This document shows, one piece after another, positions 13,221 to 47,990 of a DNA stretch of 64,000 bases. The notes beneath the pieces were generated by a model. The model was not told the DNA's origin and did no database searches. It worked only from the letters and a program-made list of their open reading frames with translations. The position numbers were made by a program, and so were the translations under genes. The stretch comes from an uncultured Bacilli bacterium (lineage in GTDB: Bacteria; Bacillota_I; Bacilli_A; RF39; UBA660). Position 1 is the first letter of the stretch; every line of letters starts with the position of its first letter. The stretch covers positions 4,297 through 68,296 of the forward strand of contig CANQNL010000002.1 of NCBI GenBank assembly GCA_947625215.1, written 5' to 3'.

Positions 13221-13238
13221 TGTATCATCTCCTTTATG

Positions 13239-14402: not shown

Positions 14403-14429
14403 ATTGATTCACCTTCTTTCGTGAAGAAT

Positions 14430-15989: not shown

Positions 15990-15999
15990 ACTATCACTC

Positions 16000-19487: not shown

Positions 19488-19502
19488 ATTATCACCTTCT
19501 TT

Positions 19503-20345: not shown

Positions 20346-20361
20346 TTACAACATACCTCCC

Positions 20362-21903: not shown

Positions 21904-21918
21904 ATTTCTCCTTTATAT

Positions 21919-23112: not shown

Positions 23113-23128
23113 ATACCTTCTCCTTCAC

Positions 23129-24865: not shown

Positions 24866-24884
24866 ATTTATTCTTCCTTTCTTT

Positions 24885-26186
24885 TTATTTTTTTTCTTCT
24901 ATTTCACTTTTATTTTCTCTAGTAAAAGCATAAGTATAAAACATAAATAACATTGAAATTAAAACTGTTTCTTCGTAAATGGTAAAAATTCTCGCATAAG
25001 CCGTAAAGATTAATAAAGTTACAAAGATAAATAACTTATGCCACTTATTTAAATTTTTAGAAAAACTGGCAATAACTGAGTAGAAAAGATTTACTAAAAT
25101 TAGTAAGTATATAATGCCACCTGTATAAATTCTTGGTACCATATCATTTAAAGTAAAATGATTAGGTAAATAAGGTGTTTGTTCTAATAAAGAAATTGCC
25201 CCTATTCCTTTACCAAATAAATAACCATTTCCATTTTCTAAAGAATATTTAAGTAGTTCGATTCGCTCCTCACCATTTCCATTAGAATTATCTGATAAAC
25301 TATCAGTAACATTATCAAAGGTTCTTGTAATATGTTGTTCGATAATATCTTTATCAATGAACTCTTTAAAACTATCATTGAATGTATACACTCCAAAAAC
25401 AATAAAAACTATTGCAAGAAAGCCACAAGTGATTTGTCCAATTCTTTCTCTTTTTATTTTGATTTTATTTCCACTTTTAGAAAATAAAGCGGTAAAAATC
25501 ATTGGTATCAAGAATAACATTAACAAGAAATAATACATTCTATTATCATTAAAAGCTGAAATATAAATTGATGAAATAATTATAAAGATAAACATTATTT
25601 TAGCTATTTTACTTCTTGTTTTATTTTCATCTTTTAAATAAATATAATTAAGCATTAAACAAACTAATGTAAAAAAACATAATCTATGTGTACCATTAGT
25701 CCCAAGAAGTCCACATATTTTATCAAAATTCCACTCCTCGCCATATGGGTTAGAAAACAAAAAACCAGGGACATAAATTTGAATAAAAGTAATAATAGTA
25801 TTAATTACACAATATGCATTTAAAATTATAAAACTCGGATTAAGAATTAATTTCTCAAATTTTTCTTTATCAGCCATAAAGAATCTAAAACATAGAACAA
25901 TAGATAATGGAATAATTCCACGGCCGATAACTTCTTTAATCCAAAGACTATGAGCATCAGTAAGAATATAATTTATTACCAGATAAAGGATATATATAGC
26001 AAATGCCATAATTTCCTTATAAGTAAATTTCATTTTTTTGTAATTTATTATAAGTAATACAGCACAGGTTCCAACAGCTACATACCTTACTAACCACATT
26101 TGATTAGCCCAAACTAGAAATAAAACGCAAAAAGTCATCAAATAAAATGATACAACACAAATTATGTCATTAGTTTTTAATTTCAT
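24885..26186 (-). CDS. wzy: Wzy-like polysaccharide polymerase / O-antigen ligase-like membrane protein
   Basis: 433 aa with more than 10 TM segments and a large loop near the C-terminus. The call rests on position and topology only. Confidence 0.5.
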   Translation of the reverse strand: MKLKTNDIICVVSFYLMTFCVLFLVWANQMWLVRYVAVGTCAVLLIINYKKMKFTYKEIMAFAIYILYLVINYILTDAHSLWIKEVIGRGIIPLSIVLCFRFFMADKEKFEKLILNPSFIILNAYCVINTIITFIQIYVPGFLFSNPYGEEWNFDKICGLLGTNGTHRLCFFTLVCLMLNYIYLKDENKTRSKIAKIMFIFIIISSIYISAFNDNRMYYFLLMLFLIPMIFTALFSKSGNKIKIKRERIGQITCGFLAIVFIVFGVYTFNDSFKEFIDKDIIEQHITRTFDNVTDSLSDNSNGNGEERIELLKYSLENGNGYLFGKGIGAISLLEQTPYLPNHFTLNDMVPRIYTGGIIYLLILVNLFYSVIASFSKNLNKWHKLFIFVTLLIFTAYARIFTIYEETVLISMLFMFYTYAFTRENKSEIEEKK

Positions 26187-26203
26187 ATTTTCACCCTTTT
26201 CTT

Positions 26204-27229
26204 TTATATATCCATAGATTTTTTTAAATAATCTTTAGCCTTTTCTTTTTCTATTTTCAATATTTTATGACTTTCATTATAATCTTTGTTTAAATTATCA
26301 GCTGTTAGTCTTCCTTTATAAGTTTTGTCTTTTAATTTTAACAATGAAAGTAATTGTTCAATTCTGGTATACATTTTTTCTTCATTATCATTGCGTTCAT
26401 ATACTGTAAATGGTGTATCAAATAATACAGCAAATACACAAGCGTGAAATGAATCGGTACAAACTAAGAAAGCATTTTTTTCAAGATATAAAAATTCCTC
26501 TGGGCTTAAACTATAAAATTCACTATCTTTATCTAAAATATTAATAATTTTAGCGTTATTTTGTTTCGCAAATTTTTTTAAATCGTCCTTTATTTTTTTA
26601 TCTTGCTTACCAAGAAAATATGTTAATATATATTTTTCTGGAATATTCTTAGGTTTAACTATTATTTGTTCCCATTCTTCTTTAGAAAGTAACATTGTTG
26701 GATCAACTAAAACCTCTGATTTGATTTTTAAATCTTGTAGTATTTGTTTTCCACTTTCTTCTCTTACAGAAACACTTTTAAAATTACTCAAATATTTTTT
26801 ATACTCTTCTTTTACAGAATCTTTTATTTTTGATATTCCAAAACTAGCTGCATAAGAAATATTTTTTTCTTTAGGTGAATATTTAAGTAGGGTCATATCC
26901 TTATTTACACTTGCAAAATTATAATTCCATACTTGATCACTGCCAACTATTAAATAATCATAATGTGTATGTATTTTTTCTAATTTAAAATAGAAAATTG
27001 TATTTAAATATTTCTGAGAAAATTTTTTTAATTTTTTATATTTTAATTTATCTTCCTTAGAAATAGTGATTTTTGTTTTTATGTTTCTTTTTATATCTTT
27101 TAATGACATATAATTAACTGTCTCGACTGTAACTCCAATATCTTCTAAAAAACATTTTAAAGCATAATTTTGAAGACGATTACCATAGTTTATATAACCA
27201 TTTAATGTGACAATTCCGACTTTTTTCAT
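26204..27229 (-). CDS. Polysaccharide pyruvyl transferase family protein
   Basis: 341 aa with MKKVGIVTLNGYINYGNRLQNYAL and GSDQVWN blocks. Paralog of 39033..40154. Confidence 0.7.
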   Translation of the reverse strand: MKKVGIVTLNGYINYGNRLQNYALKCFLEDIGVTVETVNYMSLKDIKRNIKTKITISKEDKLKYKKLKKFSQKYLNTIFYFKLEKIHTHYDYLIVGSDQVWNYNFASVNKDMTLLKYSPKEKNISYAASFGISKIKDSVKEEYKKYLSNFKSVSVREESGKQILQDLKIKSEVLVDPTMLLSKEEWEQIIVKPKNIPEKYILTYFLGKQDKKIKDDLKKFAKQNNAKIINILDKDSEFYSLSPEEFLYLEKNAFLVCTDSFHACVFAVLFDTPFTVYERNDNEEKMYTRIEQLLSLLKLKDKTYKGRLTADNLNKDYNESHKILKIEKEKAKDYLKKSMDI

Positions 27230-28170
27230 ATGTTCCTCCTTTTTATATAACTATATAAATTAGGATTTAACCTAAAGATAAAATATTTGAGTTTATTTTT
27301 AACTGAAATATTTATTGTTATTTTTTTTCGGCAATTATTAAATTTATCTAATAATTCCTGTTTTTGCTTTTTATCTAAAATGTTAGTTAAAATACTATAA
27401 CAATGCATTATTGAATCCATAACTCTAAGAATCGATTTTTCATAATGAAAATTATCGTTTTTCTTTTTAAATTCTTCTGCCCAATGTTCAAAAGCACCAA
27501 TTTCATCTAATCTATCTATATTATTTGTTGACATAATACTATTTGTGTGAATCACCCTATTATATAAAGGAAGATTTAAATACGAAAATTTCTGGCATTT
27601 TGATAAAATATCATAAATTATATAGGTATCTTCATTAATTGTATTTATGGGATACTTGCAAGATTTTATAATTTCTGATTTATATAATTTATTTATTGGG
27701 TTGCCAAGCCTTCTTTCAGAAAATAAATAATCAAACATTTCTTCACCTTGAGCAGTAAATGAATTTCTTTCTTCAGCAATTAAATAATTTTTACTAGGAG
27801 TGTGCTGAAGAATATCACACATCGAAAAATCAGCATTATTTTCTTTTAAATTATCATACAAATATTGGCAGTAATTAACATCATAATAATCATCACTATC
27901 GCAAAAGCATAAATATTTTCCTTTTGCTAAAGATAAACCAACATTTCTTGTATAAGCAATTCCCTTATTTTTTTGATGATGTACTTTTATTCTTTTATCT
28001 TCTTTTTGATATTTTTTGCATATATCTAAAGATTTATCAGTAGAACCATCATCAATTAAAATAATTTCCAAATTTTTATATGTCTGATTTGTGATGCTGG
28101 TAATACATTTATCTAAGTATTTTTCACGATTATATATACATACTATTACGCTTATTAAATCTTTGTTCAT
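27226..28170 (-). CDS. Family 2 glycosyltransferase
   Basis: 314 aa with ISVIVCIYNREKYL, IILIDDGSTD and CDSDD (DxD). Confidence 0.85.
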   Translation of the reverse strand: MNKDLISVIVCIYNREKYLDKCITSITNQTYKNLEIILIDDGSTDKSLDICKKYQKEDKRIKVHHQKNKGIAYTRNVGLSLAKGKYLCFCDSDDYYDVNYCQYLYDNLKENNADFSMCDILQHTPSKNYLIAEERNSFTAQGEEMFDYLFSERRLGNPINKLYKSEIIKSCKYPINTINEDTYIIYDILSKCQKFSYLNLPLYNRVIHTNSIMSTNNIDRLDEIGAFEHWAEEFKKKNDNFHYEKSILRVMDSIMHCYSILTNILDKKQKQELLDKFNNCRKKITINISVKNKLKYFIFRLNPNLYSYIKRRNI

Positions 28171-28176
28171 AATATC

Positions 28177-29331
28177 TCACTTTTCTAATATTTCATCATA
28201 TAATTTCATTATATTTTCAGCATTTTTTATATCACTAAATTCTTTAGCTCTTTCATAACCATTTTGGCTAATTTTGTTTCTTTCTTCTAAAGGCATATTG
28301 TAAATTTTTATAATAATATCAGCCAAATCTTGATAATCATTATGTTTATAGATAAAACTTGAATTTTTAGTTACTATTTCTGGGCAAGCACCAGTATTTG
28401 GAACAATAGTAATTAATTTATTTGTCATATATTCAACAATTACTCTTCCAAATGCTTCTGATTTTGAGCACATAATTCCAACATTATAATCTTTCATAAT
28501 AATATCAATATTATCGATAAAGCTATGAAACTTTATATTTTGAAGATTGTAATTTTCTATCTTATTAAGTAGCATCTTTTTATAGTCTTTATTTGCTTCA
28601 CCATAAAATGAAACATTTATATTTTTGCGTATTTCAGCAGGTATTAAATTTAAAGCTTCTATAAGTTCTAATTGGCCTTTGCTTTCTTGAATGCCTCCTA
28701 AAAATAATATATTTAAATTTTTATCAGTATTTGTTTTTGCTTTTTCATTTAATTGAACGCCATTATAAATAACTTTTATTTTATTTTTATCAATACCTTT
28801 TTTTACAAAATTCTCTTTTATCACATTAGATATTGCAATAAATCTATCAGTATTATTATTTAAAAATGTTATATATTTTTTTCTTAAATATAAAAGTTTA
28901 TAATCACTATCGCCAAATTCTCTTAAATGCATAATATGTGGGATATGATATTTTTTACTTAATAAAGCCCCAAAGTCATCACGATTTACATTAGTATGGA
29001 TTAAAGATATTTCATTCATATCAATTAATTTATCTATCTGTTTTAAGGCTAATTTATTGCGAATAAAATATTTTAATTTTAAAAGTGGAAATAATATTTT
29101 TTTAGCAACTTTTTTAAATTTTGTAATTCCTTCACAAACAGCAAAACCTTCATAATTTAAAATGTAATATTTTATATTATATTTTTCACACATTTTAGTT
29201 AATTGACCCTCTTTATTTATAAGAATAATTGGTTCATATTGTTTGTGCATATTTTTTGCCATATAAACAAGGGATTTAGTAGCTCCTCCTATTTGTATTT
29301 CATTAGCAATAAATAAAATTTTCTTTTTCAT
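28177..29331 (-). CDS. Family 4 (GT-B) glycosyltransferase
   Basis: 384 aa with a GGATKS N-terminus and a C-terminal SKSEAFGRVIVEYM (E-x7-E region). Confidence 0.8.
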   Translation of the reverse strand: MKKKILFIANEIQIGGATKSLVYMAKNMHKQYEPIILINKEGQLTKMCEKYNIKYYILNYEGFAVCEGITKFKKVAKKILFPLLKLKYFIRNKLALKQIDKLIDMNEISLIHTNVNRDDFGALLSKKYHIPHIMHLREFGDSDYKLLYLRKKYITFLNNNTDRFIAISNVIKENFVKKGIDKNKIKVIYNGVQLNEKAKTNTDKNLNILFLGGIQESKGQLELIEALNLIPAEIRKNINVSFYGEANKDYKKMLLNKIENYNLQNIKFHSFIDNIDIIMKDYNVGIMCSKSEAFGRVIVEYMTNKLITIVPNTGACPEIVTKNSSFIYKHNDYQDLADIIIKIYNMPLEERNKISQNGYERAKEFSDIKNAENIMKLYDEILEK

Positions 29332-29481
29332 TAAATATCACATCCTACTTGTATTCCAATTCATCATCTGATTCTAAAATAGCAGAATATAATGTTCATA
29401 TATCGGCAACAAAAATATTAAATAGTTACGTCAATGAAAATAACAATAAATTGTTTCAACATTATATTTTGACTATTTATT

Positions 29482-31338
29482 TTATTTACTATCACGCACC
29501 ATTAATTTATATAATTTAAAATAATCAATTTTGATTTTAAATAACTTTTTTAAAAATCCTACTTTCCAATTACTATCTAGTAAATCTTTTATTAATCTTT
29601 TAGGTCTAAAGATATAATAAATTAAGCTATGAGGATTTGCTAAATAAAACGTTTTGGTATCTAAGTAAGTAATACTTCCAAATAATTTAATATCATTTAA
29701 TGTGGGATATAATCCAAGTTTTTTAATGCCAAACGAGGCTATATAATTATCTATATTTATAACATTTCTATCAATAGCACTATAATTTTTTACAAAATCT
29801 AAAGCACCATTTTGAATTAAACGAAAGATTTCATTTTCCCTTGAAGAATATTCATATTTTGCTAAAACCGGGTTGATTCCATTAGAAGTTTTTTCATACT
29901 TAATTGTTGTACCGTGATTAGCAGAAAACAAATTTTCAAATAGGCTTATAAAAGCTCTAATTTGTGTTTCATCTGATTTATAATTAAACAAATACCCATA
30001 TTGCTTATTTCCTTTTTTTATGTTTTTATAAGCATTTGATAATTGACCTATATAATACCCTGTGATATCAGCTGATATTTTATTTTGAATGCAGGCATTA
30101 GTAAGTGCTGATTGCATTGAACCAGACCAACCAATATCTGAAATAGCTAATTTGCCATTAAAATCTTGCTCTTTTAAATATGAAAGTAAATTGATTTCCT
30201 CTTTTTTAGCGTTTTCTTTAATATCATTTTTAATTTCATTAAATAAATCTTCAAAATTAAAAATATTTTTGATATTTTCCTCTTTATTTGTTTTATATTT
30301 ATTTAAAAAATCTTTATAATTATTAATATCTAAGCCTACATTAATAAAGAAACTTTCTAAATCAATTACTCTTCGCATTTTACAAATTTCAAATACTTCT
30401 TCTAAAGTATTTATATTTTTAAGCAAACTAACTCTGGTACTTCTTCTTGATACATATAAATATTTTGTTTCTATATCAGTATCATTTATTAAATCAAAGG
30501 CTTTTTTTAATAAAGCTCCTTCTCTAGATAGGAAAAATATTTTATTTATTTTTTCTTTTTTAACATTTTCTTTTAACCATTTTGAATATCCAAGTAAAAG
30601 TATTCCTAATGTTTCATAACCTATTTTGTAATAAATATCTTTATCAGGTAGATTATTATTAATAAAATTTTTAATAATATTATCTTCTAAAGAATTTATT
30701 TTGTAGTCTTTATAATATCTAAGTTTATTTATTTTTTTAGGAATTAATATTGATTTAATCCTATAAAATTTTGGCATTAAATAATCAGCTCTTTTAGAAT
30801 CTCCTATATGTAATAATTCATTAGATTTAATATTTAATTTTTTTAATATATAAGGATATACTTTTCCACAATGTTTATTTAGTTTTATATCATTAGATAA
30901 AAACATATAATCATAGTTGATATTGGCATTTTTTAAAATTTGTTTTAATGTATCTTTTTCAAGATACATATCTGAAGTAATAATAATTTTTTTATTCTTT
31001 TCTTTTGCATATTTATATATAGGATAAAAATCTATATTTTTTTGGCAAAATTTTAATTCTAATTCTATTTCTAATTTTTTTATTTCTTCTTTATTTTTAA
31101 TATCAATTAACTTATAAATATCATTTATATCTGGTTCTCTATGGTTAGTTAAATCTCTAGCTTTTCTTTCGGCATTAATTCTAATTTCTTTAAAGTTTGT
31201 ATGATTATATTTTTTTCCGATTAAATCAAATATGTCAGCCGGATTTTCTATATTTCTTTTAATTAATGTATCGAAAACATCAAAAGATATATAGTCATAT
31301 TTATCTATTTGTTTTTTTATTTTTTTATAATCATACAT
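29482..31338 (-). CDS. Large HAD-superfamily hydrolase-domain protein (COG5610-like)
   Basis: 618 aa with an N-terminal HAD motif I (ISFDVFDTLIKR) and a later GDS motif. The function in the glycan pathway is unknown. Confidence 0.6.
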   Translation of the reverse strand: MYDYKKIKKQIDKYDYISFDVFDTLIKRNIENPADIFDLIGKKYNHTNFKEIRINAERKARDLTNHREPDINDIYKLIDIKNKEEIKKLEIELELKFCQKNIDFYPIYKYAKEKNKKIIITSDMYLEKDTLKQILKNANINYDYMFLSNDIKLNKHCGKVYPYILKKLNIKSNELLHIGDSKRADYLMPKFYRIKSILIPKKINKLRYYKDYKINSLEDNIIKNFINNNLPDKDIYYKIGYETLGILLLGYSKWLKENVKKEKINKIFFLSREGALLKKAFDLINDTDIETKYLYVSRRSTRVSLLKNINTLEEVFEICKMRRVIDLESFFINVGLDINNYKDFLNKYKTNKEENIKNIFNFEDLFNEIKNDIKENAKKEEINLLSYLKEQDFNGKLAISDIGWSGSMQSALTNACIQNKISADITGYYIGQLSNAYKNIKKGNKQYGYLFNYKSDETQIRAFISLFENLFSANHGTTIKYEKTSNGINPVLAKYEYSSRENEIFRLIQNGALDFVKNYSAIDRNVINIDNYIASFGIKKLGLYPTLNDIKLFGSITYLDTKTFYLANPHSLIYYIFRPKRLIKDLLDSNWKVGFLKKLFKIKIDYFKLYKLMVRDSK

Positions 31339-31346
31339 ATAACCAC

Positions 31347-32420
31347 CTACTTGCCGTGTACTTCCTTTTCTTTTAATTTAATAAATAATCCTTTAAAATG
31401 TTTTCTTACAAAATTAATAACATTACTAAACCATATACAAAGAGTTATGTTGTTTAATTTCATCGGTATAACTAATATCTTAAATTTTACTGATAATGAT
31501 TTAGCATTTTTTAAAGCTTCTTTCGTATATTTATGATTTAAAATATATTTTGTTTTTTCTCTTACTTCTTTTTTAGTTAAATTTTTATTGTCAGCTAATT
31601 CTTGAATACACTGAAACACACGACCTATAAAATATGAATCAATAGCATCTCTACTTTTTTCATCATCTAACATATTCCAATGTTTATAGAGTTTTAAAAC
31701 GTGTTCATAATGTTCAATTCTTTTTTCAAACATATTAGGATCACTATAATTTATCATTGTTTCTGCACCTTTTCTTGAACGATACCAATGATATTTAGCC
31801 ATTGAAGATACGACTACTTTACCTATATCCATTAAAAAAAACATATTAAAATGATGATCATCCCATTTGGTATCTGGAAAAATTATATTATTTTTGACAA
31901 CAATTTCTCTTTTAAAAAGCTTGTTCCAAGGTAAACTTAAAAAACTGTTATTAAAATATTTATAAGCATTTTTGCGGAAATCATTTTTATTTGTATATAT
32001 AGCATCTTCACAAGAGGTACTGTAGGTTATTGTTTTTCCATTTTGATAATATTCCATTAAAAATCCAGTAACTACTAAATCAGCATTATTATTTTTAGCT
32101 AGTTCATACATTTTTTCTAAATAATCTTTTTCAATCCAATCATCTGAATCAATAAAGTATAGATATTCTCCTTTAGCTTTTTTTAAAGCTGCATTTCTAG
32201 CAGTTGGTGCGCCGCCGTTTTCTTTATGAATAGCTGTTACTCTTTTATCTTTTTTGGCATACTCATCACATATTTTTCCACTATTATCCTTAGAACCATC
32301 ATCAATGACGAATAATTCAATATCTTTAAATGTCTGATTTAAAACGCTTTCAATTGCTTTTGATAAAAATTCTTCAACATTGTAAACCGGCATTATAATG
32401 GAGATTTTTCCTTTTTCCAT
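31347..32420 (-). CDS. Family 2 glycosyltransferase (first gene of the left operon)
   Basis: ISIIMPVYNVEEFL, VIDDGSKD and IDSDD motifs. The start was set at ATG 32420, which has RBS AGGTGG 5 nt upstream. The track start at 32429 is a GTG inside that RBS. Confidence 0.85.
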   Translation of the reverse strand: MEKGKISIIMPVYNVEEFLSKAIESVLNQTFKDIELFVIDDGSKDNSGKICDEYAKKDKRVTAIHKENGGAPTARNAALKKAKGEYLYFIDSDDWIEKDYLEKMYELAKNNNADLVVTGFLMEYYQNGKTITYSTSCEDAIYTNKNDFRKNAYKYFNNSFLSLPWNKLFKREIVVKNNIIFPDTKWDDHHFNMFFLMDIGKVVVSSMAKYHWYRSRKGAETMINYSDPNMFEKRIEHYEHVLKLYKHWNMLDDEKSRDAIDSYFIGRVFQCIQELADNKNLTKKEVREKTKYILNHKYTKEALKNAKSLSVKFKILVIPMKLNNITLCIWFSNVINFVRKHFKGLFIKLKEKEVHGK

Positions 32421-32454
32421 TTTTTCCACCTACTATTTTTACAAATTTTATAAT

Positions 32455-32493
32455 TAATAATGTGATTAAAAAAATATCTCTGAATATTTAATT
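32455..32493. repeat. IRL: left 39-bp perfect inverted repeat of the recombinase cassette
   Basis: TAATAATGTGATTAAAAAAATATCTCTGAATATTTAATT is the exact reverse complement of 33617..33655. Confidence 0.95.
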
Positions 32494-32506
32494 CAAAGAT
32501 ATTTTT
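32466..32506 (-). terminator. Terminator hairpin after the recombinase gene, formed half by IRL and half by cassette-internal sequence
   Basis: Minus-strand RNA forms AAAAAUAUCUUUGAA / UUCAGAGAUAUUUUU: a 15-bp stem with one G-U pair and a 7-nt loop, followed by Us. The 5' arm is internal (32492..32506) and the 3' arm lies in IRL. Confidence 0.5.
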
Positions 32507-32520
32507 TATTTAATGTATGG

Positions 32521-33462
32521 TTATGCCATCATATATTCAACTAAATTTTCAATGGAAGTTTTTTTAAATTCATCAGATGGGTGGGCGTATAAATTAATGG
32601 TAATATCAACACTTGAATGACCTAATATTTCACTTAAAGTTTTAAAATCCATTTTTGATTCAAGTGATCTAGTAGCAAAAGTATGTCTTAATGTATGAAA
32701 ATTAGTATATTTAAGATTAGCTTTCTTCATTATTCTTTCAAAAAACCTTCTAAATTGTCTTGGATCATATAAAGATTTGCTTTTTGATAAAATAAAATCT
32801 TCATTTGAACCTTTAAATTTTAATAAATAGTCTATAATAAAATTAGAAATTGGTATTGTTCTAATTGAAGTTTCACTTTTAGGTGTACTTTCAATTAAAA
32901 TGGTTTTTGATTTTATATTAGGGTTTTCATTATAAATTCTTTCAATTGTCCTGTTAACTGTTACAGTTTTATTATTAAAATCAATATCTTCCCATTTAAG
33001 ACCACAAACTTCTCCTATACGAAGTCCAGTATAAAGGGCAAGCAATAAACAAGCTTTTCTAATATTTGGCTTTTGATATAATACTTTTTCTAATTTTATT
33101 TGTGATTCTTTTGATAAAACACATACTTGTTTCGCTCTTTTTCGGATTTTTAAATTTGTTAAATCAATGTTTTTACACATATTTTTTTTAACACCAGTTT
33201 TTAAAGCAGCCTTAATAATATAAAGTAAAGTTTTTTGAACTGAAATAGATACTTTTTTCTCATTTAAGCTATTAAAATATAAAATAATATCATTAGCAGT
33301 AACTTTCTTTGCTCTTTTGCCAGCAATATTACCTTTAATATATCTTTCTATTAATTGTTCATACTTTTGCCTTGATTGAATTTTTATATCATTTTTTGTT
33401 TTTACCCACATATTAACGACATCTAAAAAACTTTTTTTCTCCCATAACATTAACTTATGCAT
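32521..33462 (-). CDS. Tyrosine site-specific recombinase (phage-integrase family)
   Basis: 313 aa from MHKLMLWEKK, with RBS AAGGAGG 7 nt upstream. Catalytic pattern: YTGLRIGE (Arg), HTLRHTFAT (H-x-x-R) and LGHSSVDITINLYAH (His/Tyr). The track's 38-codon N-terminal extension is rejected. Confidence 0.85.
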   Translation of the reverse strand: MHKLMLWEKKSFLDVVNMWVKTKNDIKIQSRQKYEQLIERYIKGNIAGKRAKKVTANDIILYFNSLNEKKVSISVQKTLLYIIKAALKTGVKKNMCKNIDLTNLKIRKRAKQVCVLSKESQIKLEKVLYQKPNIRKACLLLALYTGLRIGEVCGLKWEDIDFNNKTVTVNRTIERIYNENPNIKSKTILIESTPKSETSIRTIPISNFIIDYLLKFKGSNEDFILSKSKSLYDPRQFRRFFERIMKKANLKYTNFHTLRHTFATRSLESKMDFKTLSEILGHSSVDITINLYAHPSDEFKKTSIENLVEYMMA

Positions 33463-33512
33463 ATTTTTACCTCCTTTATTTTGCCCCATATTTACTTCTT
33501 TTTTCTTCCAAA

Positions 33513-33541
33513 ATATTACAATATGCAACTTTTTGCAACAA
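33513..33541 (-). promoter_or_regulatory. Candidate promoter of the recombinase gene (TTGTTG-17-TAATAT)
   Basis: The minus strand reads TTGTTG caaaaagttgcatattg TAATAT, about 50 nt upstream of ATG 33462. Confidence 0.35.
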
Positions 33542-33580
33542 AATTTATGAATTTTCGACAAATTTATAAAAAACATAGTA

Positions 33581-33594
33581 TTTTATGGTATAAT
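33581..33594 (+). promoter_or_regulatory. Outward-facing extended -10 promoter (TTTTATGGTATAAT) inside the cassette, aimed through IRR at the right operon
   Basis: TGGTATAAT lies at 33586..33594, 22 nt inside IRR. The identical 14-mer TTTTATGGTATAAT precedes recF at 60004..60017. Confidence 0.55.
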
Positions 33595-33616
33595 ATTGCT
33601 ATGTGATTTGCCCTGA

Positions 33617-33655
33617 AATTAAATATTCAGAGATATTTTTTTAATCACATTATTA
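33617..33655. repeat. IRR: right 39-bp perfect inverted repeat of the recombinase cassette
   Basis: AATTAAATATTCAGAGATATTTTTTTAATCACATTATTA is the exact reverse complement of IRL. Confidence 0.95.
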
Positions 33656-33678
33656 GTTTAGAAAAAATAGGTGAAAGT

Positions 33679-34458
33679 ATGCATAAAGATATAAAAATAA
33701 TCATTGCCACTCATAAAGAATATAAAATACCAAATGACAATATGTATCTTCCTTTATACGTTGGAAGTAAAGGGAAAAAGAACATAGGTTATAAAAGAGA
33801 TGATACTGGTAAAAACATTTCTTTAAAAAATCCATATTTTTGTGAATTAACAGGTTTATATTGGGCCTGGAAAAATCTAAAAGTAGACTATATTGGTTTA
33901 GTACACTATCGTAGGTATTTTTCTTCTAAAAAGAAAAATAAAGATAAATTTGATTCTATTTTAAAAAGAGAAGAATTGGAAAAATATTTAAATGAATATG
34001 ATATAATCGTTCCTAAAAAAAGAAAATACTATATCGAAACAATTGAAAGTCATTATAAACATACAATGAAAGAAGAAACTTTAGAAGAAACAATAAAAAT
34101 TATAAATGAAAAATATCCTGAGTATGTTAATAGCTTACAAAAAATAATGAATAGAACTTATATGCATGCTTTTAATATGTTTATTATGAAAAAAGAATAT
34201 TTAGATGAATATTGTACTTGGTTATTTGATATTTTATTTGAATTAGAAAAAAGAATGAAAAATAAAGAATATGATGCTTTCCATTCTAGATTCTATGGAA
34301 GAATAAGTGAAAGATTATTAGATGTTTGGCTAGATTACAAGGGTTATAAATATAAGGAAGTACCATTTATGTATATGGAAAAAATAGACTGGATAAAGAA
34401 AGGAACTGGCTTTTTAAAAGCTAAATTTCTAGGTAAAAAGTATGACAAAAGTTTTTAA
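33679..34458 (+). CDS. DUF4422-family glycosyltransferase-like protein (first gene of the right operon)
   Basis: 259 aa. IIIATHKEY...DDTGKNISLKNPYFCELTGLYWAWKN...GLVHYRRYF matches the DUF4422 pattern. Confidence 0.7.
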   Translation: MHKDIKIIIATHKEYKIPNDNMYLPLYVGSKGKKNIGYKRDDTGKNISLKNPYFCELTGLYWAWKNLKVDYIGLVHYRRYFSSKKKNKDKFDSILKREELEKYLNEYDIIVPKKRKYYIETIESHYKHTMKEETLEETIKIINEKYPEYVNSLQKIMNRTYMHAFNMFIMKKEYLDEYCTWLFDILFELEKRMKNKEYDAFHSRFYGRISERLLDVWLDYKGYKYKEVPFMYMEKIDWIKKGTGFLKAKFLGKKYDKSF

Positions 34459-35542
34459 AGAACCAATAAGAATTTTACAAATAGGTATGCATAACCAAAT
34501 AGGCGGAGTTGAAACATATTTATATAATTATTATAAAAATATAAATAAAAATAAAATTCAATTTGATTTTATAAATTCTTATGATTCTTTATGCTTTGAA
34601 GATGATTTGAAAGATATGGGAGCAAATATATACAAAGTACCTAATTTTAAAAAGAATCCTATAGGATTTTATAGAAGTATAAAAAAGATAATTCAACACA
34701 ATAATTATCAAATTGTTCATATTAATATGCTGTCTGCCGCAAATATATTACCAGTTTTAGCAGCAAAAAAAAGTAAAGCTAAACATATAATTGTACATTC
34801 ACATAACAATGACACGCCTACAGGTTTTTTAAGAAAAGCATTGGATAAAATAAACAAAAAAGTGTTATTGAAGAATGCAACAGATTTCTTTGCTTGTTCA
34901 GATTTGGCAGGGCAATGGATGTTTGGAAATCATAAATTTACAATTATTGAAAATGCCATTGACCTAACAAAATTTAAACCAAATAAAGATATTAGGAAAA
35001 GAATAAGAAAAGAATTAAAAGTGGAAGATAAATTTGTTATAGGTCATATTGGTAGATTTTCATATCAAAAAAATCATGAATTTTTAATAGATGTTTTTAA
35101 TGAAGTACAAAAAAAGATAAAAAATGCTGTATTGTTATTAATTGGCACAGGTGAACTTGAACAAAAAATAAAAAACAAAGTTAATGATTTGAAATTAAAT
35201 GATAAAGTTATATTTTTTGGGACAACTGATAAGGTAAATGAGTATTTTAATGCAATGGACTTATTTGTTTTGCCTTCAAGATTCGAAGGATTTGGAATAG
35301 TCGCTATAGAAGCCCAAGCAACAAAAATAAAAACTATTTTATCAACTAATGTTCCTGCTTCAGTAAATGTATCCAATTTAGCTGAATTTTTGCCAATAAG
35401 TGATTATAAAATATGGTCAAATCATATTAAAAAATATTTTAAAAATTCAAATAAAATTAGTGAAGAACAAGATTTTCCTAAAGAATATAACATTAAATAT
35501 GCAGCTGGTCTTTTAGAAAAAAAATATACGGAAATGAATTAG
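34442..35542 (+). CDS. Family 4 (GT-B) glycosyltransferase
   Basis: 366 aa with GGVETY N-terminus, GRFSYQKN and LPSRFEGFGIVAIEAQA. Confidence 0.85.
   Translation: MTKVFKEPIRILQIGMHNQIGGVETYLYNYYKNINKNKIQFDFINSYDSLCFEDDLKDMGANIYKVPNFKKNPIGFYRSIKKIIQHNNYQIVHINMLSAANILPVLAAKKSKAKHIIVHSHNNDTPTGFLRKALDKINKKVLLKNATDFFACSDLAGQWMFGNHKFTIIENAIDLTKFKPNKDIRKRIRKELKVEDKFVIGHIGRFSYQKNHEFLIDVFNEVQKKIKNAVLLLIGTGELEQKIKNKVNDLKLNDKVIFFGTTDKVNEYFNAMDLFVLPSRFEGFGIVAIEAQATKIKTILSTNVPASVNVSNLAEFLPISDYKIWSNHIKKYFKNSNKISEEQDFPKEYNIKYAAGLLEKKYTEMN
35192..35289. repeat. 98-bp perfect direct repeat, copy 1 (inside a GT4 gene)
   Basis: AAATTAAATGATAAAGTTATATTTTTTGGGACAACTGATAAGG...GATTCGAAGG is identical to 36308..36405, while the flanking paralogous sequence has diverged. 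Confidence 0.9.
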
Positions 35543-35566
35543 TTTAATTATAAAAGGATGAGTAAT

Positions 35567-36649
35567 ATGTCTAAAAAAAGAATTTTAATTTATGGAATGA
35601 CGTCTGTAATCGGAGGTTTAGAAAGATATTTAATTAATTTTTTACAAAATATTGATTCTACAAAATATGAAATTGATCTTTTATTAAAAAAAGATATTAT
35701 CGGAACTAATGCCACAGAAATAAATGGATATTACCATAAAAAGTATATATTTCCACATCCTAACTTTTTTAAACATCCAATAAAAACATTTATGTTTTGT
35801 AAAAAAATTGCTGAAGAAAAGAATTATGACATTGTTTATTTTAATATCATAAATGCAGGGTTTATTTTATGTGCATTGCCTTTTAAATTATTTTCTAAAA
35901 CTAAAATATATATTCATAGTCATAATGACAATGATGAAAACAAAATATTTACTCATTACATATTTAGACCATTGTTAAATACAATTACTGATAAAAAATT
36001 TGCTTGTTCTATTTCAGCTGCTAGATGGATGTATGGCAAAGTTCAAAAAAATGTAATTTTAATTAATAATGCTATTGATTTATCAATATTTAAAACTGAT
36101 AATAAAGTTCGAAACAAGATAAGAAAAAAATTAAAAGTAGAAGACAAATTTGTTATAGGACACGTTGGAAGATTTTGTTATCAGAAAAATCAAGAGTTTT
36201 TAATAGATATGTATTATGAACTTCAAAAAGAGGTTCATAATACAAAATTACTTTTAATTGGAACAGGTGATTTAGAGTCAGAAATTAAAAAGAAAGTGAT
36301 AAATTTAAAATTAAATGATAAAGTTATATTTTTTGGGACAACTGATAAGGTAAATGAGTATTTTAATGCAATGGACTTATTTGTTTTGCCTTCAAGATTC
36401 GAAGGCTTAGGAATTGTTGCTATCGAGGCACAGGCGATAGGACTTCCTTGTTTACTTTCAAATAAAGTTCCAAATGAGGCAAAAATAACCAATATTACTG
36501 AGTTTTTACCATTTGATAAAGATATTTGGAAAAAGAAAATTATTAATATAATGAATAAAGATATTAAAATTAAAAATAGGAAAGCAGAAATTATAAAAGC
36601 TGGATATGATTTAGAAACAGAAATTAAACGTATAGAAAAATATTTTTAA
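35567..36649 (+). CDS. Family 4 (GT-B) glycosyltransferase (tandem paralog)
   Basis: Start set at ATG 35567, with AAGGA 8 nt upstream. Motifs GRFCYQKN and LPSRFEGLGIVAIEAQA. Confidence 0.85.
   Translation: MSKKRILIYGMTSVIGGLERYLINFLQNIDSTKYEIDLLLKKDIIGTNATEINGYYHKKYIFPHPNFFKHPIKTFMFCKKIAEEKNYDIVYFNIINAGFILCALPFKLFSKTKIYIHSHNDNDENKIFTHYIFRPLLNTITDKKFACSISAARWMYGKVQKNVILINNAIDLSIFKTDNKVRNKIRKKLKVEDKFVIGHVGRFCYQKNQEFLIDMYYELQKEVHNTKLLLIGTGDLESEIKKKVINLKLNDKVIFFGTTDKVNEYFNAMDLFVLPSRFEGLGIVAIEAQAIGLPCLLSNKVPNEAKITNITEFLPFDKDIWKKKIINIMNKDIKIKNRKAEIIKAGYDLETEIKRIEKYF
36308..36405. repeat. 98-bp perfect direct repeat, copy 2
   Basis: See 35192..35289. Confidence 0.9.
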
Positions 36650-36673
36650 AATCTATAGAAACGGGGTGCTAAA

Positions 36674-37879
36674 ATGACATTTTTAAGAAAAACTTCAAAT
36701 TTGCTATTAAATAAGCCAATCATAATATTTATCGTATTTATGTTTCTCATAAAACCAGGGATAGTAAATCTGAATGGTACTATAAATATGCTTTACAATG
36801 TAGCGAGTGTAACATTAATAGCAGTTATCATATTGTTGTATATCTTGCGAGGCAAAATTTCTAAATTACAAATAGCACTTATTATATTTATTTCTTGCTT
36901 AGGAATTTCCACGTGTTTTGGAACACAAGACTTTAGTACATTCGCAAAAACTTATAGTATGATATTAGGAATCAGTTTATATACTGAAATGGTTATTAAT
37001 ACTAATTTAGAAAAATTTTTAAAAGCACTTACTGCCTTAGTATCTGTTTATATAATTTTAAATTTTTTAACTATATTATTTGTGCCTCATGGCTTTATTG
37101 GTGATGGAACACTGCATGACTTTTATTTTTTAGGATATGATAATGCCTCAGTTCATACGATTGTGCTTGGATTGGTTGTCGTAATGATATCTTCTCATTA
37201 CTTTCATAAAAAATTAACACCATTTGCACTTATTATGATAGGAATAGGGGCACTATCTTATTACTTGGTATGGGCTGCTTCCTGCTTGGTTAGTGTTTCA
37301 TTATTAGTTTTTTATGTAATATTTGTATATAAAAGGCAATTTTTTAAAAAATTCTTGAATTTTAAGGTATTATTTGGTTTTGCCATATTGTTTTTCCTTG
37401 TTATAGTTATACTTAGATGGCAGGATATATTCTCATGGTTTATTGTTGATGTATTGCATAGAGATTTAACTCTAACTGGAAGGACATATATTTGGGATAG
37501 ATGTATGACACAAATAGGGAACCATCCTATTTTAGGCTTAGGTGTTCAAGCCGAAGCAGTTCGTTTATCTACATTAGGAATTTATCATGCTCATTCTGGA
37601 TTATTAAATGTATTACTTGAAGGTGGAATTATTGGATTTGTGGCTTTCTTAAATATCTTTAGAGTAGCAACTAAATCATTAACAACTAAAGAAAACAAAG
37701 TAAATGAATTTTCAGCAATTTGTACCTTTGCATTATTTATATATTTTATTTCTACATTAGTTGATGTTATTGTAGATAGTTATTTATTCTATATACTTTT
37801 AAATATTTGTTATTTCATTCCTTTAATAAAAGAAAAGTTTGAAGAAAGAGAAAAGTTAAATGAGAATACTGATAGTTAA
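36674..37879 (+). CDS. wzy: Wzy/O-antigen-ligase-family polymerase
   Basis: 401 aa with about 10 TM segments. GRTYIWDRCMTQIGNHPILGLG...YHAHSGLLNVLLEGGIIGF resembles the Wzy_C block. Confidence 0.65.
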   Translation: MTFLRKTSNLLLNKPIIIFIVFMFLIKPGIVNLNGTINMLYNVASVTLIAVIILLYILRGKISKLQIALIIFISCLGISTCFGTQDFSTFAKTYSMILGISLYTEMVINTNLEKFLKALTALVSVYIILNFLTILFVPHGFIGDGTLHDFYFLGYDNASVHTIVLGLVVVMISSHYFHKKLTPFALIMIGIGALSYYLVWAASCLVSVSLLVFYVIFVYKRQFFKKFLNFKVLFGFAILFFLVIVILRWQDIFSWFIVDVLHRDLTLTGRTYIWDRCMTQIGNHPILGLGVQAEAVRLSTLGIYHAHSGLLNVLLEGGIIGFVAFLNIFRVATKSLTTKENKVNEFSAICTFALFIYFISTLVDVIVDSYLFYILLNICYFIPLIKEKFEEREKLNENTDS

Positions 37880-39017
37880 TAGATGTGTTTTGCCATTACC
37901 AGCAGTACAAGGTGGAGCTGTAGAAACATTAATTGAATCTTACTTGGAAGAAAATGACAAAAAATATCACGATGAAATAGATGTAGTAAGTGTTCCTATT
38001 CCAACTGAAATGCAAAAAAAAATAAAAAAATACAAATATAGTAATTTTATATATATAAAAAATAAAAGTATAAATAGTCTATATAATCTTTGCCATAGAA
38101 CTATCAAAAAGTTGGGAAAATATATTGGTGATTATTTTATAAATTCAGCTATTAAAGAGATCAAAAATAGTAAGAAAGAATATGACATAATAGTTTGTGA
38201 AAATGAGCCAGTATATGTAATGTTGTTAAAAAAACATTTTAAAGGAAAAGTAGTTTTGCATTTACACAATGATTTTCTAAATAGAGAAACACCATTTTAT
38301 GAAGATATTATTCAAAGTTGTGATTTAATATTACCAGTAAGCAATTATATAAAAAAAAGAGTTAATTGCCCAAAAAAATGTATTACTACTTATAATGGAA
38401 TTGATTTGAAGTTGTTTAAAAATAATAGCAATTCAAAATTAAAAAAACAATATAATATCAACGATAAAGATTTTATATATAGTTATATTGGTAGAGTGTC
38501 TAAGGATAAGGGAATTAATGAATTAACAGATGCTTTTATAAAATTAAATGATAAATATAAAGATATAAAATTATTTATTATCGGAGATCCTATAGGAAGT
38601 CCTAATTCCAAAGTCGCTGAAAAAGATTATTTTTATAATAGTTTATTAAAAAAGAAAAATAATAATATGATTTTTACAGGCTATATTGATAATAAAAAAT
38701 TATATCAATATATTGATATAACTAACGTACAAGTTATACCATCTATAGTAAATGAAGCATTTGGCTTAGTTGCTATAGAGGCACTTGCAATGGATAAAAG
38801 ATTAATTGTAACAGATGCTGGAGCATTACCTGAAATAACTAATAAAAAATATGGAAGAATTGTTAAAAGAGAAAACTTAACCAATAATTTATATACCGCC
38901 ATGGAAGAGGAATATTTAAATAGAAAGAAAAACAAAAATTGTCTTAATAATTTAAAACAATTTTCAAAGGAAGAATATGCAAAAAGATTACATGATAATT
39001 TAATGACTTTAAAATAG
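37860..39017 (+). CDS. Family 4 (GT-B) glycosyltransferase
   Basis: 385 aa with QGGAVE N-terminus, GRVSKDKG and PSIVNEAFGLVAIEALA. Confidence 0.8.
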   Translation: MRILIVNRCVLPLPAVQGGAVETLIESYLEENDKKYHDEIDVVSVPIPTEMQKKIKKYKYSNFIYIKNKSINSLYNLCHRTIKKLGKYIGDYFINSAIKEIKNSKKEYDIIVCENEPVYVMLLKKHFKGKVVLHLHNDFLNRETPFYEDIIQSCDLILPVSNYIKKRVNCPKKCITTYNGIDLKLFKNNSNSKLKKQYNINDKDFIYSYIGRVSKDKGINELTDAFIKLNDKYKDIKLFIIGDPIGSPNSKVAEKDYFYNSLLKKKNNNMIFTGYIDNKKLYQYIDITNVQVIPSIVNEAFGLVAIEALAMDKRLIVTDAGALPEITNKKYGRIVKRENLTNNLYTAMEEEYLNRKKNKNCLNNLKQFSKEEYAKRLHDNLMTLK

Positions 39018-39032
39018 AAAGCAGGTGAAGTT

Positions 39033-40154
39033 ATGAAAAAAATAGGAATAATAACTTTTAGTAGAGCTCAAAATCATGGAGCTACTTTGCAGTGTATGGC
39101 ACTACAAAAAACAATTGCTAATATTGTTAATGATAGTGATGTAAAAGTAATAGATTATCGAAATAAATATGTAGAGCATTCTTATAAAGTGTTTAGTATT
39201 GATACAAGCAATATAAAAACTTGTATAAGAACTATTATATCTTCTTTAGTATTTTTTAAGAAAAATTTTATTAGAAATAAAAAATATAAAAAATTTATTC
39301 TAACTCATCTTAATTTTACTAAAGAATGTACTACTAAAAAGCAAGTAGAGGAAATTACTAAAGACTTTGATTATATTATTGTTGGTAGCGATCAAGTTTG
39401 GAATCCATTTTTTGCTAAAAGTATTGATGATGTCTATTTTTTGAATTTTAAAACACCTGCTAAGAAAATATCTTATGCCGCCAGTCTTGGCTTTAATAAA
39501 ATGGAAGATAAAAAGTTATATAAAAAGTTATTAGGAAATATCGATAATATTTCTATTAGAGAAAAAGATGGATGTAAGATAGTTTCTAATATTTTAAACA
39601 AAGATATAAAAAACACATTAGATCCGACATTACTTCTTACAAGAGAAGAATGGGAAAATTATTTCAATAAAAATAATACACTAACAGATAAATATATATT
39701 TGCTTATGTGCCTGGTAATTTGGAAGGCTATGAGGAATTAGTAAATACTGTTTCTGATAAACTTAACAAAAAGGTAGTCAATATAAGAAAAAGAGATACA
39801 GGGATTAGAAATATACTAAAAAATGCCTTTACATCCACTCCTGATGAATTTCTAAATTATATTTATAATGCTGATATTGTGGTGACAACATCGTTTCATG
39901 CGGTTGTATTTGCATTAATATTTGAAAAGAAATTTTGGGTATTAGCACCTAAAAATAATAGTAGTAGAATTAACAATTTACTTGAAAAGTTGAATTTATC
40001 TTATAGAAGTGTAGATAATATTGAAAAATTAAAACAAGTGGATTTGATGAAAGATATAAATTATAAAGATGTAAAAATTAAATTAGAAGAACTAAGACAA
40101 GATTCTTTAAATTGGCTAACAAAAATGCTGACTGAAAGTGATAAAAATGAATAG
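39033..40154 (+). CDS. Polysaccharide pyruvyl transferase family protein
   Basis: 373 aa with MKKIGIITFSRAQNHGATLQCMAL, GSDQVWNP and TTSFHAVVFA. Confidence 0.7.
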   Translation: MKKIGIITFSRAQNHGATLQCMALQKTIANIVNDSDVKVIDYRNKYVEHSYKVFSIDTSNIKTCIRTIISSLVFFKKNFIRNKKYKKFILTHLNFTKECTTKKQVEEITKDFDYIIVGSDQVWNPFFAKSIDDVYFLNFKTPAKKISYAASLGFNKMEDKKLYKKLLGNIDNISIREKDGCKIVSNILNKDIKNTLDPTLLLTREEWENYFNKNNTLTDKYIFAYVPGNLEGYEELVNTVSDKLNKKVVNIRKRDTGIRNILKNAFTSTPDEFLNYIYNADIVVTTSFHAVVFALIFEKKFWVLAPKNNSSRINNLLEKLNLSYRSVDNIEKLKQVDLMKDINYKDVKIKLEELRQDSLNWLTKMLTESDKNE

Positions 40155-41556: not shown

Positions 41557-41576
41557 AATATAAAGGAGAGATGTTT

Positions 41577-43316: not shown

Positions 43317-43382
43317 ATCAATCAAAATACTAATATCACTAAAAATATGAGGATATTAACTAAAATAAAATATAAATAATGG

Positions 43383-44861: not shown

Positions 44862-44904
44862 AAGATTTGTTATTTAAACAAATTGTTGTATGAGAGGTGT
44901 TTTA

Positions 44905-45964: not shown

Positions 45965-46375
45965 ATGTTACAAAAAATAATATTAGGTACATTATTAGTT
46001 ATATGGTTAATAATAATATTTATGTTTTCAAACCAAACAGCTGATAAAAGTACTGGCGTTAGTGATAAATTTGTATCATCAATAACTAATATATTAAATA
46101 TTAAAAATAAAGATGAAGAAATAAGTATTATTGTAAGAAAAACAGCTCATTTTATGGAATATTTTATTTTAGGAATATTATTATTTTTAAATTTAAGATT
46201 ATATAATTTAGATAATAAATTAATAATTGGTATTATATTCTGTTTTATATATGCTGTTAGTGATGAAGTTCATCAGATTTTTATTGATGGTAGAACTCCT
46301 AAATTACTTGATATTTTTATTGATACTTTAGGTGCTTCTTTAAGTTTATTTATTCTTTCGTTAATAAAACCGTAA
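45965..46375 (+). CDS. VanZ-like family membrane protein, copy 2
   Basis: 136 aa, identical to copy 1 except for the first 3 and last 5 residues. RBS GGGGGG is present, and a 180-bp leader separates it from the UbiA-like gene. Confidence 0.8.
   Translation: MLQKIILGTLLVIWLIIIFMFSNQTADKSTGVSDKFVSSITNILNIKNKDEEISIIVRKTAHFMEYFILGILLFLNLRLYNLDNKLIIGIIFCFIYAVSDEVHQIFIDGRTPKLLDIFIDTLGASLSLFILSLIKP
45973..46354. repeat. Right arm of the 382-bp inverted repeat
   Basis: See 12834..13215. Confidence 0.95.
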
Positions 46376-47960: not shown

Positions 47961-47990
47961 AAAAAAACCAAATTCTATAAAATTTGGTTT
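47961..47990 (-). terminator. Terminator after the parB-like gene
   Basis: Stem AAACCAAATT / AATTTGGTTT. On the minus strand it is followed by a run of 7 Ts. Confidence 0.6.

Follow-up and report, generated by a model that had tools for sequence, protein, structure and literature searches.

A recombinase-encoding segment between two divergent glycan operons of an uncultured Bacilli bacterium as a candidate invertible promoter selector

How two divergent operons are transcribed when their first genes begin almost directly at the ends of a segment bounded by inverted repeats is the question raised by a locus of an uncultured Bacilli bacterium (assembly GCA_947625215.1). The DNA analyzed, called the window here, was a 64,000-nucleotide (nt) stretch of contig CANQNL010000002.1 (positions 4,297 to 68,296), and the locus is a 1.2-kb cassette at 32452-33658 containing a tyrosine recombinase gene and an outward-facing predicted promoter (P_out), with a 10-gene operon on its right and a 16-gene operon on its left. 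A first-pass annotation, made from the sequence alone, had proposed that inversion of this cassette transfers a single promoter from one operon to the other. The reading that we regard as probable is that inversion by the self-encoded recombinase reallocates P_out between the two operons, and that a palindromic recombination site acts as a terminator behind the recombinase gene.

Anatomy of the 1.2-kb cassette

The cassette and its immediate borders comprised the following features (aa, amino acids; RBS, ribosome-binding site).

32452..32493, left inverted repeat (IRL), containing about 17-20 nt of shared leader as well as the left core site's spacer and outer arm
33617..33658, right inverted repeat (IRR)
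32469..32507, left core site, a full palindrome AAAAAATATCTCTGAAT-ATTTA-ATTCAAAGATATTTTTT with 17-nt arms (94%) and a 5-nt spacer
33603..33641, right core site, with outer arm ATTCAGAGATATTTTTT, spacer TAAAT, and a degenerate inner arm (read from the sequence)
32521..33462, minus strand, tyrosine recombinase gene, 313 aa, intact catalytic R-K-HxxR-H-Y
33584..33594, plus strand, P_out, predicted extended -10 promoter TATGGTATAAT, outward, no good -35, predicted start at about 33601
32462..32507, minus strand, terminator-like element of the recombinase transcript, a 17-bp hairpin of the palindromic left core site followed by U7
33513..33541, minus strand, candidate recombinase promoter TTGTTG-17-TAATAT, back to back with P_out, weak (read from the sequence)
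33607-33580, alternative candidate recombinase promoter ATCACA-16-TAAAAT, from the promoter scan
33659..33678, plus strand, right leader (RBS AGGTGA), separating IRR from the right operon's first gene
32421..32451, minus strand, left leader (RBS AGGTGG), separating IRL from the left operon's first gene

IRL and IRR were 98% complementary over 42 nt and perfectly so over 39 nt (32455-32493 and 33617-33655), with 1,123 nt between the arms, as the first-pass annotation had reported for the perfect repeats; blastn stretched the match to 49 nt at 94%. When the 64-kb window was searched with the 22-nt repeat core, allowing up to three mismatches, the only two matches were IRL and IRR themselves (0.03 expected by chance). 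The view of these elements as plain repeats nevertheless needed correction, since each is really a lox-like core site. The left core site is a complete palindrome, and its inner arm extends past the repeat into the invertible segment, beside the recombinase stop codon. The right core site has the same outer arm and spacer, and its inner arm is degenerate. The arm motif TATCnnnGAAnA was common to the window and three related loci (L001, L016, and L082; related loci carry L numbers here). Because the plus-strand spacers, ATTTA and TAAAT, are opposed, a tyrosine recombinase is predicted to invert the segment and not to excise it. The repeat of the window was longer than those of its relatives (39-42 versus 18-34 nt) and reached about 20 nt outward from the core, so that both operons would share an identical leader segment. 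No target-site duplication was found at the cassette ends.

The recombinase gene was the sole open reading frame (ORF) of at least 50 aa within the repeats and had an ATG start with AGGAGG ahead of it. The protein contained the Pfam Phage_integrase domain (2.8e-30) and an N-terminal SAM-like domain, and residues R148, K195, H256-x-x-R259, H282, and Y292 were invariant in an alignment of 26 family sequences; the earlier identification of the only internal gene as a tyrosine recombinase with the catalytic pattern was thus borne out. The nearest solved structures were those of XerA (6e-16) and Tn1549 Int (1e-15), and the protein is a generic Xer/Int-like enzyme. More specific assignments were rejected. 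A FimB/FimE-type enzyme was taken to be a protein of about 200 aa scoring above the NCBIfam cut-offs of PRK09870 and PRK09871 (221 and 222 bits), and the window protein, with 313 aa and a SAM-like domain, scored 25.0 and 29.7 bits, respectively. For a serine invertase of the Hin/Gin type, the domain search of the recombinase gave tyrosine-recombinase domains only. For a Xer/dif system, the XerC, XerD, XerS, XerH, and XerA models all scored far under their cut-offs (best, XerA with 98.6 versus 220 bits), and two inverted sites about 23 kb from dnaA do not correspond to the dif arrangement of a single site near the terminus. Between P_out and the recombinase start, at 33524-33539 of the minus strand, there was a direct repeat GTTGCA-AAAA-GTTGCA, and similar sequences occurred in L001 (GTCGCAAAAAGTCGAA) and in L017 and L020 (TCGACAAAAAGCAA). 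This repeat may be a regulatory or accessory-protein binding site.

The core of P_out, TGGTATAAT at 33586-33594, was located 22 nt inside IRR, and TATGGTATAAT matches TRTGnTATAAT, the extended -10 form of Gram-positive bacteria. The 14-mer TTTTATGGTATAAT occurred exactly twice in the window, once at 33581 and once ahead of the recF ORF, at 60004 (0 expected); both the position of the element and this shared 14-mer had been noted previously and were reproduced here. P_out was missing from the list of the -35/-10 scanner because it has no -35. The leader that P_out would transcribe through IRR was unstructured (z 0.33). At the 5' end of the predicted transcript, AUGUGAUU (33601-33608) can pair with AAUCACAU (33642-33649), enclosing the core site; this pairing may form a 5' stem-loop, but it is not the minimum-free-energy structure of the plus strand. 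In a second sample of the same species (L091), TATTGTATAAT replaced TATGGTATAAT at positions 14-23, which correspond to 33585-33594 of the window, and the TG spacing was broken. A second single-nucleotide polymorphism (SNP) in L091 turned gccctga of the degenerate inner arm into gctctga, the repeat had the same sequence as in the window, and the coverage of this sample was only 2.9x.

At the recombinase 3' end, the hairpin followed by U7 had a folding energy of -18.6 kcal/mol (z -5.25), none of 200 shuffled sequences was as stable, and the same structure was present in L001. The hairpin was rich in A-U and G-U pairs throughout and failed the G+C criterion of the terminator scan. A search of the window against Rfam gave no match.

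The flanks of the cassette had been described as mirror-symmetric, and they proved to be so. On the right, ATG 33679, with AGGTGA ahead of it, was located 23 nt outside the perfect repeat, and on the left ATG 32420, with AGGTGG ahead of it, 34 nt outside. These distances leave no room for a separate promoter on either side.

Related cassettes and inversion between genomes

Homologues of the recombinase, of about 310 aa and 50-60% identity, numbered in the thousands in gut metagenomes. A scan of one genome per species gave at least 595 relatives, the best 80 of which were fetched. The closest relatives (44-60% identity) came from rabbit-gut metagenome-assembled genomes designated 'uncultured Bacilli' or Tenericutes, and more distant ones from Oscillospiraceae, Ruminococcus, Lachnospiraceae, and other Clostridia. 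A match on a Ruminococcus albus plasmid was located in a recombinase cluster and was uninformative.

The recombinase gene was enclosed by near-perfect inverted repeats of at least 17 nt, 1.0-1.45 kb apart, in 57 of the 81 related loci. These 57 loci and the window formed a set of 58 in which extended -10 elements were scored, the threshold being at least five of six hexamer positions plus TG within 70 nt inside the repeat. An outward element at the recombinase 5' end was found in 28 of the 58 loci, typically 20-35 nt from the repeat, compared with 5/58 when the same region was read inward and 1/58 and 3/58 at the other end. The promoter core of the 83%-identical relative L001 was the same TGGTATAAT as in the window. 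The repeats of the family formed palindromic core sites, TATCGTAGAATA-n5-TATTCTACGATA, to which the TATCTCTGAATA of the window conforms. Start codons of the targets were often 19-30 nt outside a repeat, and flanking genes were overwhelmingly directed outward on one side or both, convergent flanks being found in only one of the 43 loci with genes called on both sides. The targets included glycan operons, surface proteins with SLH, BspA-LRR, Big_2, or WxL domains, CheW, and LytTR and helix-turn-helix (HTH) regulators.

From these features, the family was defined by a recombinase of about 310-400 aa belonging to this clade, inverted core sites of 17-40 nt at 10-450 nt from it, an extended -10 element reading outward from the recombinase 5' end, and a target whose start codon lies shortly beyond a repeat. 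The window has all the features of this recombinase-in-cis cassette family. The majority of members resemble ON/OFF switches that serve a single side, with a parking terminator opposite the target. Outward genes within 60 nt on both sides were found, besides in the window, only in L045 and doubtfully in L028 among the 58 loci. The window is thus the clearest two-target member of the family, with an operon on both flanks and without a parking terminator.

A distant member of about 32% identity and 370 aa was found in Enterococcus raffinosus (L099, megaplasmid NZ_CP081847.1, 441.2-442.8 kb) and E. gilvus (L100). This type of cassette had perfect 26-nt inverted repeats, 1,573 nt apart, and was located upstream of a WxL/DUF916 surface-protein operon. 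As L099 belongs to a cultured strain with a complete genome, it offers a tractable model.

Comparison of related loci showed the same target on opposite sides of the cassette. L016 and L021, whose recombinases are 67% identical, had target operons that were collinear over 5.6 kb or more (192, 199, 387, 388, and 197 aa, and beyond), located on the P_out side in L016 and on the recombinase-3' side in L021. The homology ended exactly at the repeat boundary, and the cassettes themselves aligned in the same orientation. Targets on opposite cassette sides were also found in L029 and L032 (target proteins 80% identical), where the breakpoints again fell exactly at the repeats, and in L009 and L015, and a Bac_transf-led glycan operon was on opposite sides in L001 and L003. 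In several genomes, moreover, a conserved, bidirectional hairpin terminator, AAAAGGAATATG-loop-CATATTCCTTTT, was located 3-7 nt outside one repeat. It was on the P_out side, left of the cassette, in L005, L009, and L013, and on the opposite side, right of the cassette, in L015, L082-L090, and L096-L097; in this it resembles a component of a switch module that can be transferred. The sidedness of operons and terminator suggested that a typical member consists of a target leader, a repeat, the segment with outward P_out and the recombinase, a second repeat, and the parking terminator, with the segment in either state. The sequence comparison indicated that the cassette has inverted between related genomes, in a comparative and not a population-level sense.

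Within the species of the window, P_out faced the DUF4422 operon on the right in all three samples, L092 being 100% identical to the window over 1,964 nt and L091 99.6% identical. The inverted orientation that the first-pass annotation had proposed to seek in related genomes was encountered in the four pairs of relatives above, and no flipped copy was obtained from the same species. Searches with the flanking proteins each led to a single contig, which had the window orientation, and an exact-protein look-up of the window recombinase yielded no flipped copy. Homologues on contigs of 1.1-1.4 kb were considered as possible assembly breaks at the repeats; this was rejected for L093 and L094, which were fragments of 2x coverage whose ends were not repeats. 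Only in Clostridium aminobutyricum DSM 2634 (L043, NZ_JAFJZZ010000018.1) did a whole contig of 1,424 bp, from an isolate assembly, consist of a family recombinase bounded exactly by 18-nt inverted repeats at both contig ends. A culture sequenced with both orientations in it would be expected to give this pattern, which is suggestive without being conclusive.

Proposed switching, alternatives, and known systems

In the mechanism that we propose, the segment 32452-33658 would be a self-contained site-specific inversion switch. The internal recombinase would bind the two inverted lox-like core sites, with arms of the TATCnnnGAAnA type and an asymmetric spacer of 5-7 bp, and flip the segment together with P_out, a presumably strong outward promoter carried at its recombinase-5' end. 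In the assembled orientation, P_out would read through the unstructured IRR into the 10-gene DUF4422 operon, and the 16-gene glycosyltransferase family 2 (GT2) operon adjoins the recombinase 3' end, where the 17-bp hairpin and U7 should block read-through. After inversion, P_out would be directed towards the GT2 operon. The palindrome's inner arm belongs to the moving segment and would stay with the recombinase 3' end, so that the hairpin would form again beside the DUF4422 operon and, in either orientation, behind the recombinase gene. The expected outcome would be alternation, at least between high and low expression, of two Wzx/Wzy-type pyruvylated surface glycans.

Several observations weigh against this reading. 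P_out is without a -35 element, and promoter-like matches to a consensus -35/-10 scanner occurred at chance level in this 25%-GC DNA. A flipped copy was absent from the three independent samples (the window, L091, and L092), which, being low-coverage consensus assemblies, provide a weak test. An exact search of Joint Genome Institute (JGI) metagenome contigs with the repeat 32-mer gave 0 matches; the P0055 locus had a uniform orientation in the nine places shown of 24 contigs read and in two JGI contigs, and the cassette of the E. raffinosus megaplasmid had one orientation in three records. The asymmetry between a terminator at the recombinase 3' side and none at the P_out side was not general in the family (p = 0.31), which makes insulation of the recombinase-3' side uncertain, and read-through from the recombinase promoter could hold that operon on at a low level. 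The claim of an invertible either/or selector was supported in respect of architecture, the layout shared by 57/81 loci, the extended -10 conserved in 28/58, and breakpoints bounded by the repeats in relatives; inversion in this organism, with one orientation in three samples, and strict either/or expression, which depends on a hairpin shared with L001, remain inferred.

Some of these points suit an explanation in which the cassette inverts but works as a rheostat or one-sided switch, the operon at the recombinase 3' end still being read from the recombinase promoter or an internal one, so that inversion only swaps strong and weak drive or effectively controls a single operon. In most relatives, the target follows the stop codon of the recombinase gene and the repeat directly, without a separate terminator in between, the (+,+) arrangement was the commonest (28/57), and the composition and limited distribution of the hairpin point in the same direction. 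Nevertheless, the 17-bp stem with U7 was far more stable than shuffled sequences and has been kept in L001, and the conserved P_out together with the parking terminators of relatives implies that transcription is driven mainly by P_out and not by the recombinase promoter. We consider this explanation unlikely, while giving it serious weight. It is quite improbable, in our view, that the cassette descends from an invertible switch and is now frozen, with P_out as a fixed promoter of the right operon. The single orientation in all samples of the species and the degenerate inner arm of the promoter-side core site would be expected of such a relic; however, the 39-nt repeats were perfect although SNPs in L091 were located just inside them, the recombinase ORF and every catalytic residue were intact, and the left operon would be left without an evident promoter. 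Moreover, consensus assemblies of 2-3x coverage cannot show minority orientations.

The resemblance of the recombinase to Xer proteins and conjugative-transposon integrases, the distant homologues in phages and plasmids, and the TnpV, resolvase, or RepA genes near some related loci would also be compatible with the chance presence, between the operons, of a Xer/dif-type module or of a small mobile element or integrase module that ends in inverted repeats. This is very improbable. The cassette was present in a single copy in the window and had no target-site duplication, paralogues within one genome were about 70% identical, each with its own repeats, and hence had not transposed recently, and the low scores with XerC, XerD, XerS, and XerA and the two inverted sites some distance from dnaA argue against a dif module. 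A conserved outward promoter and a fixed 20-30-nt spacing to target starts would furthermore be useless to a transposon. Inversion by the self-encoded recombinase with reallocation of P_out therefore remained the preferred explanation.

Among known systems, the cassette resembles Salmonella Hin/fljBA (and Gin, Cin, and Pin) in having a recombinase gene and an outward promoter inside a segment of about 1 kb and in that its outcome would be one or the other of two surface antigens. Hin, however, belongs to the serine recombinases, requires Fis and an enhancer, and serves one target side (fljBA), either/or expression being obtained via the co-transcribed repressor FljA. In the window, in contrast, the recombinase is of the tyrosine type, and a second operon on the other flank would take the place of the FljA repressor. 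In the sap locus of Campylobacter fetus, surface-layer genes flank an invertible segment in opposite orientations and share the one promoter that it carries. This segment, of about 6 kb, contains no dedicated recombinase gene, and its inversion occurs by homologous recombination, dependent on RecA, of the conserved 5' regions of the genes. The window cassette is like sap in that one invertible promoter would serve both flanks, and unlike it in carrying a dedicated recombinase. Tyrosine recombinases flip promoter-bearing segments in fimS (Escherichia coli FimB/FimE), mrp, and mad as well, but fimS-type segments are about 300 bp, act as ON/OFF switches, and have their recombinases outside.

Hin is encoded within its own invertible segment, and a fimbrial switch of Providencia stuartii has an 844-bp segment reported to enclose a recombinase ORF (PMC5903667); unlike the window, this switch is one-sided and proteobacterial. 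The Bacteroides capsular-polysaccharide invertons likewise provide phase-variable choice of surface polysaccharide operons in gut bacteria via inverted promoters, with Mpi and with Tsr tyrosine invertases encoded beside the inverton (PMC8748976, PMC5903667). There, however, each locus has its own ON/OFF inverton of about 200 bp, the recombinase is in trans or adjacent, and exclusivity is imposed by trans regulators, whereas the single window cassette would physically allot one promoter to one of two operons. In Ureaplasma parvum, inversion at short inverted repeats alternates neighboring surface-protein genes, UU172/UU171 and mba/UU376 (PMC3047005, PMC3599477). This system shares with the window a low-GC Bacilli/Mollicutes lineage and, on the proposed reading, the alternating expression of two neighbors by site-specific inversion; it differs in that the sites are in or next to coding sequences and give chimeric genes, the targets are single genes and not operons, and the candidate tyrosine recombinases (XerC, RipX, and CodV) are encoded elsewhere in the genome. 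The Clostridioides difficile RecV switches (cwpV, flgB, and cmrRST) are also tyrosine-recombinase inversions of Firmicutes controlling surface or signaling functions (PMC5903667, PMC2784873), but they are 154-230 bp long, act as ON/OFF switches, and depend on one trans recombinase for several sites, some via terminator formation.

Recombinase-in-cis switches and inversion-driven alternating expression were thus known separately, and the novelty suggested by the first-pass annotation was somewhat overstated in view of the P. stuartii and Ureaplasma systems. The window would combine the Hin/P. stuartii layout with glycan promoter inversion of the Bacteroides type and alternating neighbors of the Ureaplasma/sap type. 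A full-text literature search found no description of this Firmicutes cassette family or of a two-operon selector with the tyrosine recombinase in cis; the supplement of PMC5903667 is not detailed enough to place its Clostridia chemotaxis-linked inversions inside or outside this family. PhaseFinder-based catalogues drop invertible regions that contain or overlap a coding sequence (CDS) (PMC8748976), and cassettes with an internal recombinase would therefore be hidden from them.

More tentatively, and with a little less than even confidence, we suggest that the family could be a portable phase-variation module, consisting of the recombinase, lox-like sites, a TRTGnTATAAT promoter, and often a parking terminator, which has spread upstream of diverse genes in hundreds of gut Firmicutes species and been missed by CDS-discarding catalogues, and which in the window would be wired as a two-way selector of two complete Wzx/Wzy operons, mutually exclusive without a trans regulator. 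Phase variation in uncultured gut Bacilli and Clostridia is poorly charted. If the reading is correct, the window would contain a minimal hard-wired two-state surface-glycan selector of a low-GC gut Firmicute, with exclusivity arising from DNA geometry alone, and the family would be a large set of self-contained switches governing surface proteins, glycans, chemotaxis, and regulators in these uncultured bacteria. The 1.2-kb unit of recombinase, sites, and promoter would also be a compact candidate part for synthetic biology. The two-way wiring and the family-wide self-contained design are noteworthy to specialists; the underlying principle was already established.

The flanking glycan operons and their surroundings

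The features on either side of the cassette were as follows (GT, glycosyltransferase; TPP, thiamine pyrophosphate; TM, transmembrane; SDR, short-chain dehydrogenase/reductase).

33679..45783, plus strand, right glycan operon of 10 tightly packed genes, facing P_out in the assembly; gene order DUF4422, GT4, GT4, Wzy_C, GT4, pyruvyl transferase, Wzx, TPP enzyme, PMT_2 (GT-C), UbiA
12813..32420, minus strand, left glycan operon of 16 genes, facing the recombinase 3' end in the assembly; genes 1-9 GT2, HAD-like, GT4, GT2, pyruvyl transferase, 10-TM protein, TPP enzyme, unknown, Wzx; genes 10-16 SDR, two DUF6020, GtrA, flavin oxidoreductase, UDP-glucose dehydrogenase, VanZ
12834..13215, minus strand, VanZ-like copy 1, at the distal end of the left operon
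45973..46354, plus strand, VanZ-like copy 2, just past the right operon

The operon sizes of 10 and 16 genes given earlier were upheld, the gene past the left operon (12255-12746) having its own perfect TTGACA-17-TATAAT promoter, which agrees with the count of 16. Both operons had their own glycosyltransferases, Wzx, putative polymerase, pyruvyl transferase, and TPP enzyme, and the pyruvyl transferases and TPP enzymes of the two operons showed 33 and 58% identity, respectively. From the sequences, these parallel gene sets would fit alternative versions of one function. The description of the operons as two complete surface-glycan loci was, however, too strong: no priming phosphoglycosyl transferase (Bac_transf or MraY-like GT4) was recognizable in either operon, and the LytR-CpsA-Psr (LCP) ligase at 46486-47925 was outside both, so that completeness is not established.

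The two VanZ copies formed a 382-bp inverted repeat with 99.7% DNA identity, which brackets the 33-kb two-operon region. Their position at or near both distal ends fits two alternative units needing the same accessory function. As the VanZ proteins were 97% identical, compared with 33-58% for the other paralogue pairs, gene conversion is implied, and this inverted repeat could mediate homologous inversion of the entire island. Tandem paralogues were also observed within the operons, namely the two DUF6020 membrane proteins of the left operon (73% DNA identity, 16418-19487) and two GT4 glycosyltransferases of the right operon (80% over 430 nt, 34889-36423).

The window had a GC content of 25%, and the glycan island (about 12.8-47.9 kb) was located amid housekeeping genes near the replication origin, with uvrB, lgt, a trxB-like gene, and whiA on one side and parB, rsmG, mnmG, mnmE, yidC, dnaA, dnaN, recF, and gyrB on the other. 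The right operon, on the plus strand and left of the dnaA (56792)/dnaN/recF/gyrB origin region, would run head-on to replication. The sign of the GC skew changed at the cassette (about 33 kb) and at about 48 and 56 kb. Beyond the island, an unusually long ParB-like gene (47989-49761, 590 aa) contained a 112-nt direct repeat with 90% identity (48213-48324 and 48486-48597).

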